Origin: a virus
Virus record (IMG/VR): IMGVR_UViG_3300018080_008418
Strand: one strand, 5' to 3'
DNA: 17,475 nucleotides
A program made the translations under genes and the position numbers. The notes under the pieces were generated by a model. It saw only the letters and a list, made by a program, of their open reading frames with translations, was not told where the DNA came from and made no database searches. Shown piece by piece: positions 6,633 through 16,608 of the stretch (positions are counted from its first letter, which is position 1; each line of letters begins with the position of its first letter).

Positions 6633-8256
6633 TGAAGCCAGTCTAGATTTCTGGATCAAGCATGGCTACAACGTCATGTTCAAGGGCCGACATGGTGTGG
6701 GCAAGACATCCATCGTCAAGGAAGCCTTCGACCGTGCGAAGTTGAAGTGGCGGTACTTCAGTGCTGCTACGATGGACCCGTGGGTGGATTTCATCGGCGT
6801 GCCGAAAGAGCAACAGAATGGTCATGGTTCCTATCTCGAATTGGTGCGCCCGATTGAGTTTCAACAGGACACGGTTGAAGCTATTTTCTTGGACGAATTC
6901 AATCGTGCCCACAAGAAGGTCCGCAATGCGGTCATGGAGCTAATTCAATTTCGCTCGATCAATGGAAAGAAATTCAACAATCTGAGGATGATCTGGGCGG
7001 CGATCAACCCGGATGAGGAAGAAGAGTACGATGTCGAGGTGCTGGACCCGGCCCAACGAGATCGCTTCCCGATCCAAGTGGAGCTTCCATACAGGCCGCA
7101 TCTGCCATACTTCATCGAGGTCTATGGCGAGGAAACCGCCCGAGGGGCCGTAAGTTGGTGGCAGGATCTCCCCGACGATCAGAAGGATTTGGTCTCGCCA
7201 CGCCGTTTGGATTACGCCCTGGACGTGCTCTCGAAGGGTGGCAACGTGCGAGACGTGGTTCCGGCCTCGGCCAATATTTCCAATTTGCTCACAACGATTA
7301 AAACCGGTCCCGTTGCGGATCGGTTGCAACGTTTCTGTGACCAGAGCGATGAAGAGGGCGCACGGAAATTCTTGGCTTCGGAGAATCAATACTCAGCCGC
7401 CATTGGCTACATAGTCTCCAAGCGAACGTACCTCGAATTCTTCGTGCCGCTGTTGGGCGACGAGAAGATCAGCCTGCTAATTGCCACAGAGAAATCCGTC
7501 TTTGATTATGCGGTCCAAGCCGCACGATTGGACCGTCGAATTCGTCAAATCATTGCGGACATCATCAGGGCGGATGCCAACAAGAAGTTGGTGAGGAAGC
7601 TGAAGAAAGAGTTTGCTGGCGACCCCAATGCACCGGCGTTGTTTGGCGCTGGCTACTTGTTGCCGACTGGCGAGTTGATTGGCGATGATACGCCTGAGAA
7701 TTCGTATTTCAAGAGTCAGATCACCTCGACAACGATGGTGGATAATTGGCACAGGCGATCCAACAACATCAGCCAGACACATGATCGCAGGAAGCTTTTG
7801 GAAGAGATTAAGGATCGCATGCCCTGTCGCCTTACAACGGATGAGGCACTGAAGATGCTTCGTGTCTTTTCCAACATTGCTGCTCGTTGTCAGCAAAAGA
7901 CGATGAAAGGTTGGGGCGGCTCCTCATTTAAGTGGGTCGGCATGGTCAATCATTGTGTTGAGCAGATCCACAAGAACGACAATGCAACGTGGCCAGAAAT
8001 GGTTGCGGCGCACAAGATCGACCAGATGGGCATTTTCGCTAAATTGGCCGAGGGCGGATTTGGCAACAAGATCTACACGCCCAACAGGAAACTGAAAGTG
8101 CCCGCAGGACAAAAGCAGCCCAATCCGCTCAAGGGGAAGAAATTCTCCAAGACCGGCAATGCCCCCGCTGTTGGGAAAACGTGCCCCAACTGTCAGGCCA
8201 TCGTGGGCTGTAGAACGAAGTTTTGTAAGTGTGGACATAAATTTTACGGACCATGA
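6625..8256 (+). CDS. MoxR-like AAA+ ATPase (AAA_5/dynein-related type) with a C-terminal zinc ribbon.
   Basis: The Walker A motif is 'GRHGVGKTS'. The Walker B and MoxR signature is 'IFLDEFNRAHKKVRNAVMELIQ'. The C-terminus reads 'GKTCPNCQAIVGCRTKFCKCGHKF', a CxxC...CxC arrangement. ATG 6625 overlaps the upstream stop and has a GAGGG RBS. Confidence 0.75.
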   Translation: MISEASLDFWIKHGYNVMFKGRHGVGKTSIVKEAFDRAKLKWRYFSAATMDPWVDFIGVPKEQQNGHGSYLELVRPIEFQQDTVEAIFLDEFNRAHKKVRNAVMELIQFRSINGKKFNNLRMIWAAINPDEEEEYDVEVLDPAQRDRFPIQVELPYRPHLPYFIEVYGEETARGAVSWWQDLPDDQKDLVSPRRLDYALDVLSKGGNVRDVVPASANISNLLTTIKTGPVADRLQRFCDQSDEEGARKFLASENQYSAAIGYIVSKRTYLEFFVPLLGDEKISLLIATEKSVFDYAVQAARLDRRIRQIIADIIRADANKKLVRKLKKEFAGDPNAPALFGAGYLLPTGELIGDDTPENSYFKSQITSTTMVDNWHRRSNNISQTHDRRKLLEEIKDRMPCRLTTDEALKMLRVFSNIAARCQQKTMKGWGGSSFKWVGMVNHCVEQIHKNDNATWPEMVAAHKIDQMGIFAKLAEGGFGNKIYTPNRKLKVPAGQKQPNPLKGKKFSKTGNAPAVGKTCPNCQAIVGCRTKFCKCGHKFYGP

Positions 8257-8474
8257 GTAAACAGACAGAGGAAATGAGGGCCTTCATCGAGCGGGCCAGG
8301 GCTGGAGACCTAAACGCACTCGAACGAATAAGAACGTATTTGCAAAATCATGCGTTCCCCCTGTTCGGCGAAGAATTGTGGCCGCAGGACGAGCGCCAAT
8401 TCGTGCTTGAATCAGACGAACGTTCCATTGAAACCCTGGAGATCATTATCGACTACATCGAGGAGGCTGAGTAG
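8253..8474 (+). CDS. Small acidic hypothetical protein of 73 aa.
   Basis: ATGA overlap with the AAA+ gene stop; translationally coupled. Confidence 0.5.
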   Translation: MSKQTEEMRAFIERARAGDLNALERIRTYLQNHAFPLFGEELWPQDERQFVLESDERSIETLEIIIDYIEEAE

Positions 8475-8617
8475 TGACTTACACCTGGGTGTTCATTTGT
8501 GATCTGGTGGGTGGTTGCGGGGCGGTCATCAAGATCAAGTCAGATCGGTACGGTGGGCATACCTTCATCAACTGTCCGGTGTGCCACAGAAATGCAGGGC
8601 TCAAGCACAAAGAATGA
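8474..8617 (+). CDS. Putative 47-aa zinc-ribbon protein, below the 60-aa cutoff of the ORF track.
   Basis: A GTG start follows AGGAGG at 8461-8466 by 7 nt. The product 'VTYTWVFICDLVGGCGAVIKIKSDRYGGHTFINCPVCHRNAGLKHKE' has a Cx5C...CxxC arrangement. Its stop TGA at 8615-8617 overlaps ATG 8614 of the next gene in an ATGA junction. Confidence 0.35.
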   Translation: MTYTWVFICDLVGGCGAVIKIKSDRYGGHTFINCPVCHRNAGLKHKE

Positions 8618-9879
8618 CGAACCTTCTTTCCCAAGAAGATTTTCTGAGCATCTGCATGGAGTTGGAAGAACACCATGCAGTTTTCTATCAACTCTGGACG
8701 ATGGGCAAGCCAGTCTTCACTTCGTCCGTTGAGACGGCGGCGGTGTGTTTTGACCACCAGGGGCAATGGGTGGAGTTTGTTTTCAATCCCGATTATTGGA
8801 AGGGCCTGGATCACTACCAGCGCAAGTTTGTCATCTGCCACGAGTGTTTGCATGTCATCTTGAATCACGGCTTGCGGATCAACAGTATTGGTCAGTTCAA
8901 CCATGACGCCGTGAACGCTTGTTTGGACGTGGTTGTCAACGAGTCGTTGGTGCGTGGTTTCGGATTCGACCGCAAACGCTTGGGGCGTCTCACCAAGAAC
9001 GGCTGTTGGGTGGACACCGTTTATCCCAATCGCAAAGACATCCCCGCTGATGCTGCTTTCGAGTATTACTTGAATCAGCTTCCCAAGGTGAAACTTCCCC
9101 TCCATATCGCTGGCCTACTTGGCGGCATCGACGATCACACCGGATTGGCCGGTTCGGTGTGGGAGGATGCGATTGATGAATTGGACAAACATCTCACGCC
9201 GCAGGAAAAGGAAACGCTCAAAGACTTCATCCGGCGAAATTATCAGACAGATGATGAGGGCGAGAAAGAAAGGGTGCGTCGTGGGGAAGGTTGCGGTGGA
9301 TGGTCTTTCATCAACACCGGTCCTGTCAAGAAGAAGAAGAAATGGGAGTCGGTCATAAAACGGTGGTCGAAGAAGTACGACCGAGCCGAGCTTAGGGATG
9401 TTGAGCAATGGGCAAGATTGAATCGTCGCCTCACCTCCCTGTCTTCCGATCTTATGCTTCCCAGTGAAATGGAGACGGAGCATGATATGGACGGCAAGAT
9501 CCAGGTGTGGTTTTTCCAAGACACCTCTGGCTCTTGCTGGCACCTGAAAGACCGATTCTTCAAGGCCGCACGGTCGCTGGACCCGAAACGGTTTGATGTG
9601 CGCATGTTCTGTTTCGATACCAAGGTCAAAGAAATAGACATAACCGAGGGGAAGATTTATGGAGGGGGTGGAACCCGCTTTGATATTTTGGAAACAGAAA
9701 TTCAAGCAAAACGAGCGACGAAGGGTAATTATCCCGAGGCGGTCTTCGTCATTACAGATGGCTACGGAACGCCCGTCGCCCCGGAAAAACCCGAACGATG
9801 GTATTGGTTCCTCAGTCATAGCCACCGCCGTTGCATTCCCCAAGAGTCAAATGTGTACATGCTCAATGATTTTGAATGA
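8614..9879 (+). CDS. HExxH metallopeptidase-like N-domain plus von Willebrand A (MIDAS) C-domain protein; typical partner of MoxR ATPases.
   Basis: 'VICHECLHVILNH' contains the HExxH motif. 'VWFFQDTSGSC' contains the DxSxS MIDAS motif. The first in-frame ATG is at 8614; the track's 8515 start is a GTG lying within the small zinc-ribbon ORF. Confidence 0.65.
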   Translation: MTNLLSQEDFLSICMELEEHHAVFYQLWTMGKPVFTSSVETAAVCFDHQGQWVEFVFNPDYWKGLDHYQRKFVICHECLHVILNHGLRINSIGQFNHDAVNACLDVVVNESLVRGFGFDRKRLGRLTKNGCWVDTVYPNRKDIPADAAFEYYLNQLPKVKLPLHIAGLLGGIDDHTGLAGSVWEDAIDELDKHLTPQEKETLKDFIRRNYQTDDEGEKERVRRGEGCGGWSFINTGPVKKKKKWESVIKRWSKKYDRAELRDVEQWARLNRRLTSLSSDLMLPSEMETEHDMDGKIQVWFFQDTSGSCWHLKDRFFKAARSLDPKRFDVRMFCFDTKVKEIDITEGKIYGGGGTRFDILETEIQAKRATKGNYPEAVFVITDGYGTPVAPEKPERWYWFLSHSHRRCIPQESNVYMLNDFE

Positions 9880-10284: not shown

Positions 10285-10358
10285 AGCGGGGTGGAGCAGT
10301 CCGGTAGCTCGGGAGGCTCATAACCTCCAGGTCGCAGGTTCGAATCCTGCCCCCGCCA
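10285..10358 (+). tRNA. tRNA-Met (CAT), initiator-like.
   Basis: Cloverleaf read directly: acceptor AGCGGGG pairs with CCCCGCC with an A1xC72 mismatch; U8 G9; D-arm GAGC-AGTCCGGTA-GCTC with A11:U24; anticodon arm GGAGG-CTCATAA-CCTCC; T-arm GCAGG-TTCGAAT-CCTGC; discriminator A. Confidence 0.8.
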
Positions 10359-10676: not shown

Positions 10677-10862
10677 GTGTATCCTGACCAAGGCGTGGTC
10701 ATGGTGAAGGACGATAAGAAGCTCGCCGATTGGCGACTTGACATCCTTGAGTACGAAGACCTAGAAGCCCTTGGCTTGGAGCCTGACTTTTGGTGGGAAG
10801 GGCAAAGAGTCAAAGTAAATTTCAAAAATGGAGAACCATCACATGTACAACTCGGAGCATGA
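10677..10862 (+). CDS. Small hypothetical protein; start uncertain (GTG 10677, or ATG 10701).
   Basis: The + ORF ends in an ATGA overlap with the next gene. No strong RBS for either candidate start. Confidence 0.35.
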   Translation: MYPDQGVVMVKDDKKLADWRLDILEYEDLEALGLEPDFWWEGQRVKVNFKNGEPSHVQLGA

Positions 10863-11182
10863 CTGACAACGTTACATTCCCCGACTGGCTGCCGCCCTAT
10901 TTGGAGCGGAGCGAGATCTTGGGGAAGCTTGCCAACTGGTTAAAGGAAGGCAAGTCGGACGAAGACATCGCCAGGATGTGGAATTCAACAGCAGAGAAAG
11001 TTCATGATCTGCGAACCCACTGGAGCATGATACGAGACGGCGAGTGCCCGCATTGCGGAGACAAGAGATACGATTGGGACAAGAAAGAATGCCCTAATCG
11101 ACGATGCATAACAAATTGGTATATTCCGCCGCATTGGAGAGAAGGCGGTAAGAAGAAAGGGAAGAAAGGGAAGAAAAAATGA
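10859..11182 (+). CDS. Hypothetical Cys-containing protein of 107 aa with a Lys-rich tail.
   Basis: ATG 10859 is in an ATGA junction. The motif 'CPHCGDKRYDWDKKECPNRRC' suggests Zn binding. Confidence 0.5.
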   Translation: MTDNVTFPDWLPPYLERSEILGKLANWLKEGKSDEDIARMWNSTAEKVHDLRTHWSMIRDGECPHCGDKRYDWDKKECPNRRCITNWYIPPHWREGGKKKGKKGKKK

Positions 11183-11226
11183 TGATGCTCAACAGGTTGA
11201 AACGCAGGGTTACGAATGGCTACACG

Positions 11227-11299
11227 CCCTCGTAACTCAGTTGGTAGAGTTGGGAGCTTTTAACTCTCGGGTCGTAGGTTCGAGTCCTACCGGGGGCAC
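11227..11299 (+). tRNA. tRNA-Lys (TTT).
   Basis: Acceptor GCCCTCG pairs with CGGGGGC; D-arm ACTC-AGTTGGTA-GAGT; anticodon arm GGGAG-CTTTTAA-CTCTC; T-arm GTAGG-TTCGAGT-CCTAC; discriminator A. Confidence 0.8.
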
Positions 11300-11355: not shown

Positions 11356-11802
11356 ATGAGTAACCCAAAGGCTAAAGGTGAAAAAGGACAAAAGGTAGTA
11401 ATAGGAGAATTGGCAAAGCATGACATTGAGGTGTTGATTCCGCTGAGCGATAACCTGCCATACGATTTGGTAATTGATTGGCAAGGCAGGCTGTTGAAGT
11501 GCCAAGTGAAGTCAAGCGACTATCGGCCTTCTAAAGCAAGTGGAATGGTGGAGTTCAGTCTGAAAACAAACAACTGGTACAAGAAAACCAGCAAGACGTA
11601 TTCAGCGGATGAGATAGATGTGATGCTTTTGTGTGACTTGCGTGATTGGAGTGTGTATGTGCTAGGTCCAAAGGATTTCGATGGACGGTCATCATTCGCC
11701 ATGCGTGACGAAGCAGCCAAGAACGGCCAAAAGAAAGGCGTCAATCTTCGTGAAGACTACTTGCTGTCAGAGGCCACCTTGACGAGAAAGCTGAGCCTAT
11801 AG
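11356..11802 (+). CDS. Putative PD-(D/E)xK-fold nuclease (Hjc/restriction-endonuclease-like core) of 148 aa.
   Basis: A GGAGG RBS lies 6 nt before ATG 11356. 'GEKGQKVVIGELAKHDIEVLIPLSDNLPYDLVIDWQGRLLKCQVKSS' matches the E...D...(E/Q)xK architecture of Hjc-like nucleases. The gene lies between tRNA-Lys and the interrupted tRNA. Confidence 0.35.
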   Translation: MSNPKAKGEKGQKVVIGELAKHDIEVLIPLSDNLPYDLVIDWQGRLLKCQVKSSDYRPSKASGMVEFSLKTNNWYKKTSKTYSADEIDVMLLCDLRDWSVYVLGPKDFDGRSSFAMRDEAAKNGQKKGVNLREDYLLSEATLTRKLSL

Positions 11803-11886
11803 CTCAATTGGTAGAGCATCGGACTTACAGGCCAGACCGCCTACAAGTTAATCCGAAGGTTTCCGGTTCGATCCCGGATGGGCTCA
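11793..11886 (+). tRNA. tRNA-Asn (GTT)-like, 94 nt, with a 21-nt insertion between nt 33 and 34. It would read Val-TAC instead if the insertion were placed at 37/38.
   Basis: A canonical body: acceptor GAGCCTA pairs with TGGGCTC; U8 A9; D-arm GCTC-AATTGGTA-GAGC; anticodon stem TCGGA pairs with TCCGA; variable loop AGGTT; T-arm TCCGG-TTCGATC-CCGGA. The anticodon loop is 28 nt, CT[TACAGGCCAGACCGCCTACAA]GTTAA. The insert can form its own AGGC/GCCT hairpin. Confidence 0.6.
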
Positions 11887-12158: not shown

Positions 12159-12572
12159 ATGAAAGAAGTGAAAGGACCGCTTTATCAAGCGAAGGGAGTG
12201 TTGAGGTATTCGGAGGGCTTCAGGTTGGTCGTTGAGGTCGATCAGGAGTTGGCGAATTACTACCGGTCGATGATACCGAAGTGGAAGGTGGTCAACCGGC
12301 AGATGTACCCAGCACACGTGACCGTCGTAAGGGGGCAAAAGGAAACGCCGCCTAATACAGAGCCATGGGAGAGATACCAAGGCGAGTTGGTTGAATACAC
12401 GTACAGCCCAATCGTGCATGAAGGCACGGTGTACTACTGGTTGAATGTGTTTTCAACAAGGTTAGAAGAGGTGAGGCGTGAACTGGGTCTTCCAGTTCAT
12501 AGCGAGTACACCTTGCCGCCCGGTGGGTTTACTAGGTGCTTTCACATGACGTTGGGGAACAAGAAAGAATGA
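12159..12572 (+). CDS. 2H phosphoesterase superfamily protein (LigT / cyclic-phosphodiesterase / Acb1-like) of 137 aa.
   Basis: Two H-x-T-x motifs flanked by hydrophobic residues, 'PAHVTVVRG' and 'CFHMTLGN', about 77 aa apart. This is the defining signature of the 2H family. The gene sits inside the tRNA cluster. Confidence 0.5.
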   Translation: MKEVKGPLYQAKGVLRYSEGFRLVVEVDQELANYYRSMIPKWKVVNRQMYPAHVTVVRGQKETPPNTEPWERYQGELVEYTYSPIVHEGTVYYWLNVFSTRLEEVRRELGLPVHSEYTLPPGGFTRCFHMTLGNKKE

Positions 12573-13755: not shown

Positions 13756-14005
13756 ACAGTTAAGGGTAGCATTGAAGCAGATTGAACAAGCGGAAGAGCA
13801 GGGGTTCGAGCACTGTTTGTCGATCTTTAAGATCTTTCAGGTAGGTGAATGCGTAAGCGATTGTCAAGCAAGACACGTGGGATTGATATTGCGAGCAGAT
13901 AAGGCCGACCCGAACAAGGATTGGGGTCGGATTTGCAATCAGTTCCTCGGCGACTATAGATATGTTGACGGAGAATTGATCGACATAGCTGAACAAGGTA
14001 GTTGA
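13733..14005 (+). CDS. Hypothetical protein of 90 aa.
   Basis: A + ORF that overlaps the upstream gene by 23 nt. Its stop falls inside the 5' end of tRNA-Ile. Confidence 0.4.
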   Translation: MEVCITGEQLRVALKQIEQAEEQGFEHCLSIFKIFQVGECVSDCQARHVGLILRADKADPNKDWGRICNQFLGDYRYVDGELIDIAEQGS

Positions 14006-14068
14006 AGGCTGGTGGCCTGACTGATGCTGATAACATCGGGATGTCGAGTTCGATTCTCGGAACTACCA
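13997..14068 (+). tRNA. tRNA-Ile (GAT)-like with a non-canonical D-arm.
   Basis: Acceptor GGTAGTT pairs with AACTACC; anticodon arm TGATG-CTGATAA-CATCG; T-arm TCGAG-TTCGATT-CTCGG; discriminator A. Position 8 is G and the D-loop is short. Confidence 0.5.
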
Positions 14069-14078
14069 CTGGGAGATA

Positions 14079-16065: not shown

Positions 16066-16140
16066 GTGGCCGTCCCATGCTGGTTTTGGGGCCCTGGCCG
16101 TGAACCAGGGTTACGGCGGGTTCAATTCCCCCCGGTCACC
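16066..16140 (+). pseudogene. Degenerate tRNA-like gene, possibly a pseudo-tRNA-His.
   Basis: Acceptor GTGGCCG pairs with CGGTCAC and the discriminator is C. The anticodon arm CCCTGG-CCGTGAA-CCAGGG has a 6-bp stem and C33. The T-stem has a mismatch and nucleotide 9 is missing. Confidence 0.3.
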
Positions 16141-16276: not shown

Positions 16277-16348
16277 AGGTCCGTGGTGTAATTGGTAGCA
16301 CGTTGCTCTCCAAAAGCAAAAGTCCGGGTTCAAGTCCTGGCGGGCCTG
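16277..16348 (+). tRNA. tRNA-Trp (CCA).
   Basis: Acceptor AGGTCCG pairs with CGGGCCT; D-arm GTGT-AATTGGTA-GCAC; anticodon arm TTGCT-CTCCAAA-AGCAA; T-arm CCGGG-TTCAAGT-CCTGG; discriminator G. Confidence 0.7.
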
Positions 16349-16414
16349 CTGGGACCAATCTTGCAAGAGAGTTTGGAGCGGTCGCCGCCGACCGTGCCCT
16401 AAACGGCGGCACAC

Positions 16415-16508
16415 AGGTGCCTAGCTCAATTGGTAGAGCACTGGTCTTTTGCCCAAACAGGCAACAAGCCAAAACCAGCGGTTGGGGGTTCGATTCCCTC
16501 GGCACCTG
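16415..16508 (+). tRNA. tRNA-Trp (CCA)-like, 94 nt, with a 21-nt insertion between nt 33 and 34.
   Basis: Acceptor AGGTGCC pairs with GGCACCT; D-arm GCTC-AATTGGTA-GAGC, Trp-like; anticodon stem CTGGT pairs with ACCAG; T-arm GGGGG-TTCGATT-CCCTC; discriminator G. The loop is CT[TTTGCCCAAACAGGCAACAAG]CCAAA. Removing the insert leaves CTCCAAA, identical to the Trp loop at 16308-16314. The insert forms a TTGCC/GGCAA hairpin. Confidence 0.6.
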
Positions 16509-16513
16509 CTTGA

Positions 16514-16608
16514 GCGCCCGTAGCTCAATGGATAGAGCAACGGACTAGAGGTCAGGCTGCCTCACAAATCTAATCCGTAGGTTGCAAGTTCGAGTCTTGC
16601 CGGGCGTG
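16514..16608 (+). tRNA. tRNA-Arg (TCT)-like, 95 nt, with a 22-nt insertion between nt 33 and 34.
   Basis: Acceptor GCGCCCG pairs with CGGGCGT; D-arm GCTC-AATGGATA-GAGC, matching the layout of Arg-UCU tRNAs; anticodon stem ACGGA pairs with TCCGT; T-arm GCAAG-TTCGAGT-CTTGC; discriminator G. The loop is CT[AGAGGTCAGGCTGCCTCACAAA]TCTAA. Removing the insert leaves CTTCTAA, identical to the loop of the Arg tRNA at 16146. Confidence 0.6.

Follow-up and report, generated by a model that had tools for sequence, protein, structure and literature searches.

Related hairpin inserts of 21-22 nucleotides in the anticodon loops of three phage transfer RNA genes

The virus record IMGVR_UViG_3300018080_008418 of IMG/VR raises the question of what short inserts are doing in the anticodon loops of transfer RNA (tRNA) genes, and whether genes so interrupted can still be put to use. 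The stretch of DNA analysed, 17,475 nucleotides (nt) long and hereafter called the window, holds 12 tRNA genes as found by ARAGORN and Rfam, all of them on the + strand, and three of the 12 have long anticodon loops. A first-pass annotation, made from the letters of the window, had read two of these as tRNA-Trp (CCA) and tRNA-Arg (UCU) genes split by 21- and 22-nt inserts at position 33/34, had placed the insert of the third at the same position, and had argued for a deliberate element rather than random decay. The reading of the two split genes stands, as their insert boundaries are fixed by uninterrupted orthologues in a relative, contig L124. The three interrupted genes and their inserts are the following.

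16415-16508, + strand: interrupted tRNA-Trp(CCA) of bacterial type (A1-U72, G73); 58.3 bits with the Rfam tRNA model RF00005
16448-16468, + strand: Trp insert, 21 nt, TTTGCCCAAACAGGCAACAAG, between T33 and C34; boundaries from the L124 orthologue
16514-16608, + strand: interrupted tRNA-Arg(UCU); 58.9 bits with the Rfam tRNA model
16547-16568, + strand: Arg insert, 22 nt, AGAGGTCAGGCTGCCTCACAAA, between T33 and T34; boundaries from the L124 orthologue
11793-11886, + strand: third interrupted gene, 94 nt, most likely tRNA-Lys(UUU); 62.7 bits with the Rfam tRNA model; A73
11827-11847, + strand: third insert, 21 nt, in the Lys register, after T34; aligned by MAFFT with the other two

Interrupted tRNA genes and their inserts

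All three interrupted genes belong with the tRNAs, scoring well above the RF00005 gathering score of 29; the match spans model positions 1-71 in each of them and the insert is handled as a loop insertion. Cloverleaf folding beats shuffled controls for both the Trp gene (z = -3.3) and the Arg gene (z = -2.7), with anticodon loops of 28 nt and 29 nt, respectively. Genes of this kind can be mistyped or overlooked by standard tRNA finders: ARAGORN calls the third one a tRNA-Val, leaves 16415-16508 untyped as a 95-nt tRNA and misses 16514-16608.

The boundaries of the Trp and Arg inserts come from L124, a contig of NCBI assembly GCA_043956575.1 and the closest usable relative, which has the tRNA cluster order His, His, Arg(UCU), Trp, Trp, Arg(UCU) in common with the window. 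Homologues of the 114-amino-acid protein encoded just upstream of this cluster are found at 46-64% identity on other contigs, some of them of 220-290 kilobases (kb). The joined Trp exons are identical to the uninterrupted gene L124 3197-3269 at 71 of 73 positions, both differences falling in the T loop. For the joined Arg exons and the uninterrupted gene L124 3666-3739 the figure is 64 of 73, and the nine differences amount to four fully compensatory stem pairs and the discriminator base. Since these orthologues are uninterrupted, the inserts lie exactly at T33/N34 and other registers are impossible; their empty sites also mean that the inserts are derived. The exon-exon junctions expected after insert removal, marked here by a slash, are GGTCT/CCAAAACC (also written GGTCT/CCAAAACCAG) for Trp and GGACT/TCTAATCC (also written GGACT/TCTAATCCGT) for Arg. 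Judged against L124, the exons of both genes carry no structure-breaking changes and the tRNA bodies are undamaged. An assembly artefact was rejected, because the identical sequence recurs in independent assemblies. The split Trp and Arg genes are confirmed as real tRNA genes with real inserts.

For the third gene the claim of a common position holds only in part: Trp and Arg are split at 33/34, but the third gene is probably split at 34/35 in a Lys frame and not, as first read, at 33/34 in an Asn frame. Deleting 21 nt after T33, which places the insert at 11826-11846, produces an Asn (GTT) loop, and deleting 21 nt after T34 produces a Lys (TTT) loop with the expected junction GGACTT/TTAATCCGA. 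Several observations favour Lys. The gene has A73; among the IMG/VR tRNAs listed that share its D arm and anticodon arm, position 73 is A in each distinct Lys sequence and G in each Asn sequence. The body of 11793-11886 resembles Lys and Ile2 genes, the homologous alignment of its insert with the Arg insert begins after CTT, and the neighbouring endonuclease, described below, is of a family linked to tRNA-Lys. We therefore regard 11793-11886 as most likely tRNA-Lys(UUU). An orthologue of this gene was looked for in the relatives and none was found. Should Lys be correct, the boundaries would be set by the element itself, 6 nt before its loop and 9-10 nt after it, and not by tRNA numbering.

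The three anticodon arms with their inserts align in a single register with MAFFT, and the inserts share one plan: a 2-nt lead, a stem of 4 base pairs (bp), a 6-nt loop fitting CARRCN and a tail fitting ACAAR. Written as lead, 5′ stem strand, loop, 3′ stem strand and tail, they read as follows.

Trp insert: TT-TGCC-CAAACA-GGCA-ACAAG
Arg insert: AG-AGGT-CAGGCT-GCCT-CACAAA
Third insert: AC-AGGC-CAGACC-GCCT-ACAAG

That the inserts are non-random, related and structured, as first proposed, agrees with the statistics. The hairpins are more stable than those of shuffled sequences for each of the three inserts (p = 0.009-0.04); that of the Trp insert folds at -5.5 kcal/mol, with 0.85% of shuffles folding as well, and that of the Arg insert at -6.4 kcal/mol, with 2.8% of shuffles doing so. 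Pairing is complete in all 12 stem cells, and at two of the four pairs both bases change in a compensatory manner, a covariation that is statistically weak with three sequences, 64 of 500 shuffles doing as well. Between the third and the Arg insert 16 of 21 positions agree (76%), a level reached by 11 of 5000 random pairs (p about 0.002), and the chance probability of the 4-mer common to the insert 3′ ends is about 5e-4. The full motif of hairpin and tail occurs three times in the 17.5-kb window, exclusively in the interrupted loops; in 2.75 Mb of other loci it occurs five times, about the number expected by chance, and never in a tRNA. The Trp and Arg inserts are each single occurrences in the window, and no donor copies of the inserts were found there. 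Taken together, these likenesses show the three inserts to be members of one element family.

The insertion sites are alike as well. The flank GG-W-CT is common to all three and comes with no target-site duplication, and the longer context GCA-N-Y-GG-W-CT ahead of the anticodon is found in the window solely in the three interrupted genes, which points to sequence-specific targeting. The shared hairpin, loop and tail, together with the intact tRNA bodies, speak for a deliberate element rather than decay. The covarying stem, the conserved architecture and the undamaged exons favour selection acting on the RNA. In predicted folds the hairpin forms a structured plug that leaves N34-A38 single-stranded.

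Uninterrupted twins, surveys and neighbouring genes

It had been noted from the start that each split gene stands beside an uninterrupted twin, and both twins are found by ARAGORN and Rfam.

16277-16349, + strand: divergent uninterrupted twin tRNA-Trp(CCA); anticodon loop CTCCAAA at 16308-16314; orthologue L124 2925-2997
16146-16220, + strand: divergent uninterrupted twin tRNA-Arg(UCU); anticodon loop CTTCTAA; orthologue L124 1869-1944

As the twins also have orthologues in L124, the duplicate isoacceptors are older than the insertions. The Trp twin is identical to its L124 orthologue outside tRNA positions 25-45, where 14 differences form one block and all five anticodon-stem pairs are replaced. 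This swapped stem suggests a pressure specific to the anticodon arm, and the block looks like either diversifying change or a gene-conversion patch limited to that arm. Paired isoacceptors, one canonical copy with the D stem GCTC/GAGC and one divergent copy, are kept in the window phage and in contigs L124, L126, L128 and L317; the pairs comprise Trp, Arg(UCU), His and Ile(GAU) in the window and Asn, Lys, Phe and Tyr in the relatives. Two divergent copies, 13997-14069 and 16066-16140, go undetected by Rfam. The tRNA-Met(CAT) gene at 10285-10358, with an A1/C72 mismatch topping the acceptor stem, an initiator-like D arm and a G-rich anticodon stem, is uninterrupted despite an arm ending in AGGCT.

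The first-pass annotation had called for a database search for similarly interrupted tRNAs, and this search, in IMG/VR, GTDB and metagenomes, gave no further example among the matches listed. The identical Trp anticodon arm carries an insert in none of at least 180 other occurrences among the matches listed from IMG/VR and metagenome loci, and none of about 75 tRNAs of relatives is interrupted. A structural scan of loci fetched regardless of inserts returned 788 tRNAs with 7-nt loops and no 28-29-nt loop of the insert kind. Patterns of the exact arms with a 15-30-nt gap had no matches in IMG/VR. The matches listed there for a generic long-anticodon-loop pattern were mostly tRNA-Tyr genes interrupted at 37/38 by introns, often on contigs that bear a giant-virus label, and none was like the present inserts. 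A pattern requiring ACAA, applied to IMG/VR and GTDB genomes, yielded archaeal-type 37/38 introns, chance matches and one unrelated Arg-like tRNA type, with no further example of the insert; the Trp-arm pattern with a 0-30-nt gap retrieved from metagenomes only uninterrupted genes among the matches listed. Relatives sought in IMG/VR by way of the AAA protein were not found. The occurrence of the inserts in the window is far beyond chance. A new class of mini-intron, as had been proposed, does not emerge from this survey, since no relative carries the inserts and the data examined hold no conserved class.

The other contigs of this phage that were examined are all of at most 15.6 kb. Over 15.3 kb, contig L001 differs from the window solely by in-frame indels of 15 nt (3227-3241) and 9 nt (11152-11160), the latter falling in a lysine- and glycine-rich repeat that ends the open reading frame (ORF) 10790-11182. 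The surveys also brought up tRNA-like genes of other kinds. An Arg(TCT)-like tRNA at L129 4899-4996 and at about 1225-1320 of L353 (- strand) carries a 27-28-nt insert, CTTCT/TTTGTGC...ACAAAAG/AA, which lengthens the anticodon arm to about 19 bp; the L129 gene is flanked by an 18-nt inverted repeat, with half of another tRNA ahead of it, and its surroundings hold no recognisable endonuclease gene. Genes of about 91 nt, with the loop CTTATA(C) (anticodon TAT) and a second hairpin with a CTGATAA-type loop at the place of the variable arm, lie at L126 9175-9265 and L127 460-550 and recur across many viral contigs, among them the IMG/VR loci L023-L025, L053, L064, L070, L071, L074, L078, L103 and L109.

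Around the third interrupted gene lie three further features.

11226-11299, + strand: uninterrupted tRNA-Lys(UUU), found by ARAGORN and Rfam, 56 nt upstream of the endonuclease gene
11356-11802, + strand: free-standing homing endonuclease of the I-Ssp6803I family, PD-(D/E)XK type; PF11645 E = 1.5e-22, PDB 2OST E = 2.9e-7
12159-12572, + strand: 2H phosphoesterase with two HxT/S motifs on a duplicated alpha-beta fold

ORF 11356-11802 had been named as a nuclease whose effect on RNA processing might be tried; it is a homologue of a DNA homing endonuclease targeting tRNA genes and shows no evident mark of an RNA-processing enzyme. Its PF11645 match reaches 80.6 bits against a cut-off of 26.1, and residues E9, D37, Q50 and K52 are invariant across 17 homologues, so that sequence and predicted catalytic residues alike assign it to the I-Ssp6803I family. 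I-Ssp6803I itself reads a 23-bp pseudo-palindromic target (PMC3384342), and PF11645 genes ride group I introns inserted at 33/34 of tRNA-fMet (PMC13011429). In the window the ORF is placed between the uninterrupted tRNA-Lys gene and the third interrupted gene, into which it runs, its stop codon TAG (11800-11802) forming tRNA positions 8-10 of 11793-11886. The phage PF11645 genes are free-standing, and a tRNA-Lys(UUU) gene precedes them by 7-59 nt in the window and in nine of 11 other loci examined (L319 9889-10492; L320, L321, L324, L327, L331 and L337-L339 at about 2370-2930). The tRNA that follows the phage PF11645 gene is often Pro and once Asn, and the contigs are very different.

The product of 12159-12572 is a 2H phosphoesterase, as had been supposed, but a role in RNA processing is no likelier for it than another: the protein could be an Acb1-type degrader of signalling nucleotides as plausibly as an RNA end-healing enzyme. 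The relatives encode a PF09414 RNA ligase, RlaP, PTH2, aminoacyl-tRNA synthetases, EF-Tu and a T4-type capsid protein. EF-Tu, class I aminoacyl-tRNA synthetases, an RF-1-like protein, PTH2 and RlaP are found in L317 (4454-5650, 8780-10045) and L125 (6705-9536, 14102-14527), and the set of translation and RNA-repair genes of this clade is unusually large. Further proteins are encoded in the window at 1538-2852, 3-713, 5702-6280 and 6625-9879, namely a JAB-domain protein beside a ThiF-like E1, two sigma-70-like proteins and a MoxR-type AAA ATPase with a DUF2201/VWA-like partner.

Readings of the inserts

Either the insert must leave the RNA by some route or the interrupted genes are dead. We tentatively favour, with a confidence somewhat short of even, the reading that the inserts are intron-like mobile mini-elements which break the target of a homing endonuclease and are removed from the RNA by protein-mediated cutting and rejoining. 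Copies of one small, structured, intron-like element would have colonised the anticodon loops of canonical-type tRNA genes in a T4-like large phage. At the DNA level each copy would split the pseudo-palindromic sequence of the anticodon arm at, or one base off, 33/34, the site of the introns that belong to the I-Ssp6803I-family endonucleases themselves. The interrupted allele would resist cleavage and could be copied into the empty alleles of co-infecting relatives, much as in collaborative or trans homing and with the mobA/gene 60 cassette of T4. As for the RNA, an element of 21-22 nt is too short to self-splice, hence a protein would have to excise it, presumably by recognising the conserved hairpin with its CARRCN loop and ACAAR tail. 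The cloverleaf would keep the two halves of the tRNA together until they were sealed by an RNA ligase of a type encoded in this clade. The endonuclease target, the immunity, the excision from RNA and the ligation are all steps that we infer.

A protective-insert cassette has insert-free alleles in relatives, and the L124 orthologues of the Trp and Arg genes are such alleles. It also has its endonuclease gene next to the interrupted gene, which is true of 11793-11886, overlapping the stop codon of the ORF, but not of the Trp and Arg genes. A distance of 4.6 kb separates the latter from that gene, and no other of its kind was recognised beside them; this is one of several points that weigh against the favoured reading. 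The intact twin genes make a loss of function tolerable, and the intact exons may only mean that insertion was recent. The insertion point is 33/34 in two genes and probably 34/35 in the third. In other phages the tRNA-Lys gene adjoining the PF11645 gene is uninterrupted. Among the ORFs of the window no splicing endonuclease, RNA endonuclease or ligase was recognised, and the lack of inserts in every relative and other contig examined gives no indication of a dedicated, conserved splicing system.

Part of this evidence would suit equally the possibility that the inserts are never removed, the inactivated copies being tolerated thanks to their intact twins and kept for immunity of the DNA to a homing endonuclease aimed at tRNA genes or simply by recency. 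An intact twin accompanies every interrupted gene, in pairs older than the insertion, the inserts are absent from all relatives and all other contigs examined, no processing enzyme is visible in the window, and the link to the endonuclease fits here just as it does in the favoured reading. However, DNA immunity needs no set length, hairpin, loop or tail, yet all of these are kept, and the exons are free of changes that break the structure. Immunity would moreover come at no cost through point changes in the stem, as the divergent Trp twin shows. Inactivated copies are the main rival to the favoured reading, a possibility to be taken seriously, although on the whole an unlikely one.

The unspliced RNAs might also be functional in themselves, either as tRNA-shaped decoys or sponges for host anticodon nucleases or as latent tRNAs that are activated when nuclease cuts at both junctions are followed by resealing by the phage. 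Position 33/34 coincides with the cut site of PrrC-type nucleases, which T4 Pnkp and Rnl1 reseal. The plug hairpin would leave N34-A38 single-stranded, an RNA ligase and RlaP are encoded in the relatives and a 2H enzyme in the cluster, and large phages pair tRNA sets with RNA-repair enzymes (PMC7824862). Set against this, no host nuclease with such junction preferences is known. The 5′ cuts would be made after U and the 3′ cuts after G, A and G, and one specificity does not fit both. The proposal is purely inferential, it leaves the link to a DNA endonuclease unexplained, and we hold it to be improbable.

A hairpin whose conserved flanking bases keep a set distance to the junctions, inserted in the context GG-W-CT at all three sites without target-site duplication, could further be a miniature DNA-level transposon like REP or IS200/IS605, placed by a single-strand transposase after a short target ending in CT and perhaps excised precisely. 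The window does not bear this out: no transposase domain, HUH or Y1, was detected in it, and the copies in it are confined to the three anticodon loops, with none elsewhere on either strand. Phages are not known to carry elements of this type, nor are any known that measure 21 nt. We consider such an origin quite improbable.

Still less probable, to the point of being very unlikely, are remnants of group I introns that once occupied 33/34 and were almost wholly deleted. PF11645-bearing group I introns do occupy 33/34 of tRNA-fMet (PMC13011429); U is the last base of the 5′ exon in every one of the three genes, and G closes the Trp insert and, in its Lys register, the third. The last base of the Arg insert is A, however, and three independent deletions would be needed, each leaving 21-22 nt of the same architecture. 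A group I core (P3-P9) usually exceeds 200 nt, and no Rfam group I model matches the inserts even at E <= 1, nor is there a consistent P1-type pairing by inspection.

Self-splicing introns are ruled out by size. A bulge-helix-bulge intron, in which two 3-nt bulges that hold the splice sites flank a 4-bp helix, is geometrically impossible, a 5′ site at 33/34 putting the second bulge outside the loop by inspection, and the predicted folds show the plug hairpin instead; the tRNAs of the window are bacterial in type (Trp with A1-U72 and G73, His with an encoded G-1), and no EndA/Sen splicing endonuclease is found among its ORFs. Staggered cuts of RNase III type were rejected, as the 2-nt 3′ overhang that they leave would suit the Trp gene and L129 and is at odds with both the Arg and the third gene, and so was MazF-type cleavage at ACA, which the Trp and Arg 5′ junctions do not contain.

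Comparison with known systems

The locus is a compact test case, with a defined hairpin, loop and tail that can be mutated and a candidate partner endonuclease. If the inserts are spliced, a new bacterial RNA-processing pathway would follow, and with it a natural role and splicing substrate for tRNA-sealing RNA-repair ligases. If they are not spliced, conflicts driven by homing endonucleases can disable phage tRNA genes, which would help to explain the duplicate divergent isoacceptors. It is conceivable in more general terms, though we rate it as doubtful, that phages harbour undescribed protein-spliced tRNA mini-introns. These would be 21-22-nt hairpins with a CARRCN loop and an ACAAR tail, mobile from one tRNA anticodon loop to another, which protect either genes from tRNA-targeting homing endonucleases or RNAs from anticodon nucleases; an endonuclease guided by the hairpin would excise them, and a phage or host RNA ligase would seal the ends.

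Several known systems share features with the locus. I-Ssp6803I with the group I intron of the cyanobacterial tRNA-fMet is alike in the family of the endonuclease, in the type of target in the anticodon arm and in the interruption at 33/34. It differs in that the endonuclease gene is here free-standing beside tRNA-Lys, the inserts are of 21-22 nt with no ribozyme core, and the interrupted genes are Trp, Arg and probably Lys genes of a phage.

Free-standing endonucleases with endonuclease-less inserts have been described (PMC2988022, PMC2790892, PMC6083498, bioRxiv 10.1101/2022.08.31.505936). Collaborative or trans homing is represented by F-CphI and the psbA intron of cyanophage S-PM2 and by T4 mobE and the I-TevIII intron, and beside these stands T4 mobA with the 50-nt bypass cassette of gene 60. 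As at the third interrupted gene of the window, a free-standing endonuclease adjoins a gene with a small endonuclease-less insert; the insert interrupts the target while the gene stays usable, as the favoured reading would have it here. The insert in those systems is a self-splicing intron or a stretch skipped by the ribosome, whereas the host gene here encodes a tRNA, and only one of the three interrupted genes adjoins the endonuclease gene.

The introns of archaeal tRNA genes have bulge-helix-bulge structure, and short ones at non-canonical positions have spread between tRNA genes in Thermoproteales. Such introns are likewise short (tens of nucleotides), removed by protein, related to one another and present in several tRNA genes per genome. 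In contrast, no bulge-helix-bulge can be formed around 33/34 in the present genes, the tRNAs are of bacterial type and the window encodes no EndA-like protein. Protein-spliced tRNA introns are not known from bacteria and their viruses.

The enigmatic tRNA introns of Lak megaphages resemble the present inserts in being large-phage tRNA inserts that are not group I and are variably present, and their boundaries were likewise set by comparing alleles with and without the insert (bioRxiv 10.1101/356790). Compared by description, they differ in phage lineage and host, and at least one is long enough to hold tRNA-like sequence; the Lak report described neither an element family nor an endonuclease link nor a mechanism. 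T4 SegB is also encoded by a homing endonuclease gene among phage tRNA genes and drives inheritance of the tRNA region (PMC2988022, PMC13096335), but it is a GIY-YIG enzyme, its target is listed as a tRNA intergenic region (PMC2988022), and it comes without associated interrupted tRNAs. A review of 2014, earlier than the Lak report, placed every phage intron then known in protein-coding genes (PMC3984707). What is new at the present locus is a three-member family of 21-22-nt inserts at 33/34 (probably 34/35 in the third gene), for which empty sites serve as exact controls and which is physically linked to the endonuclease family of the 33/34 introns.

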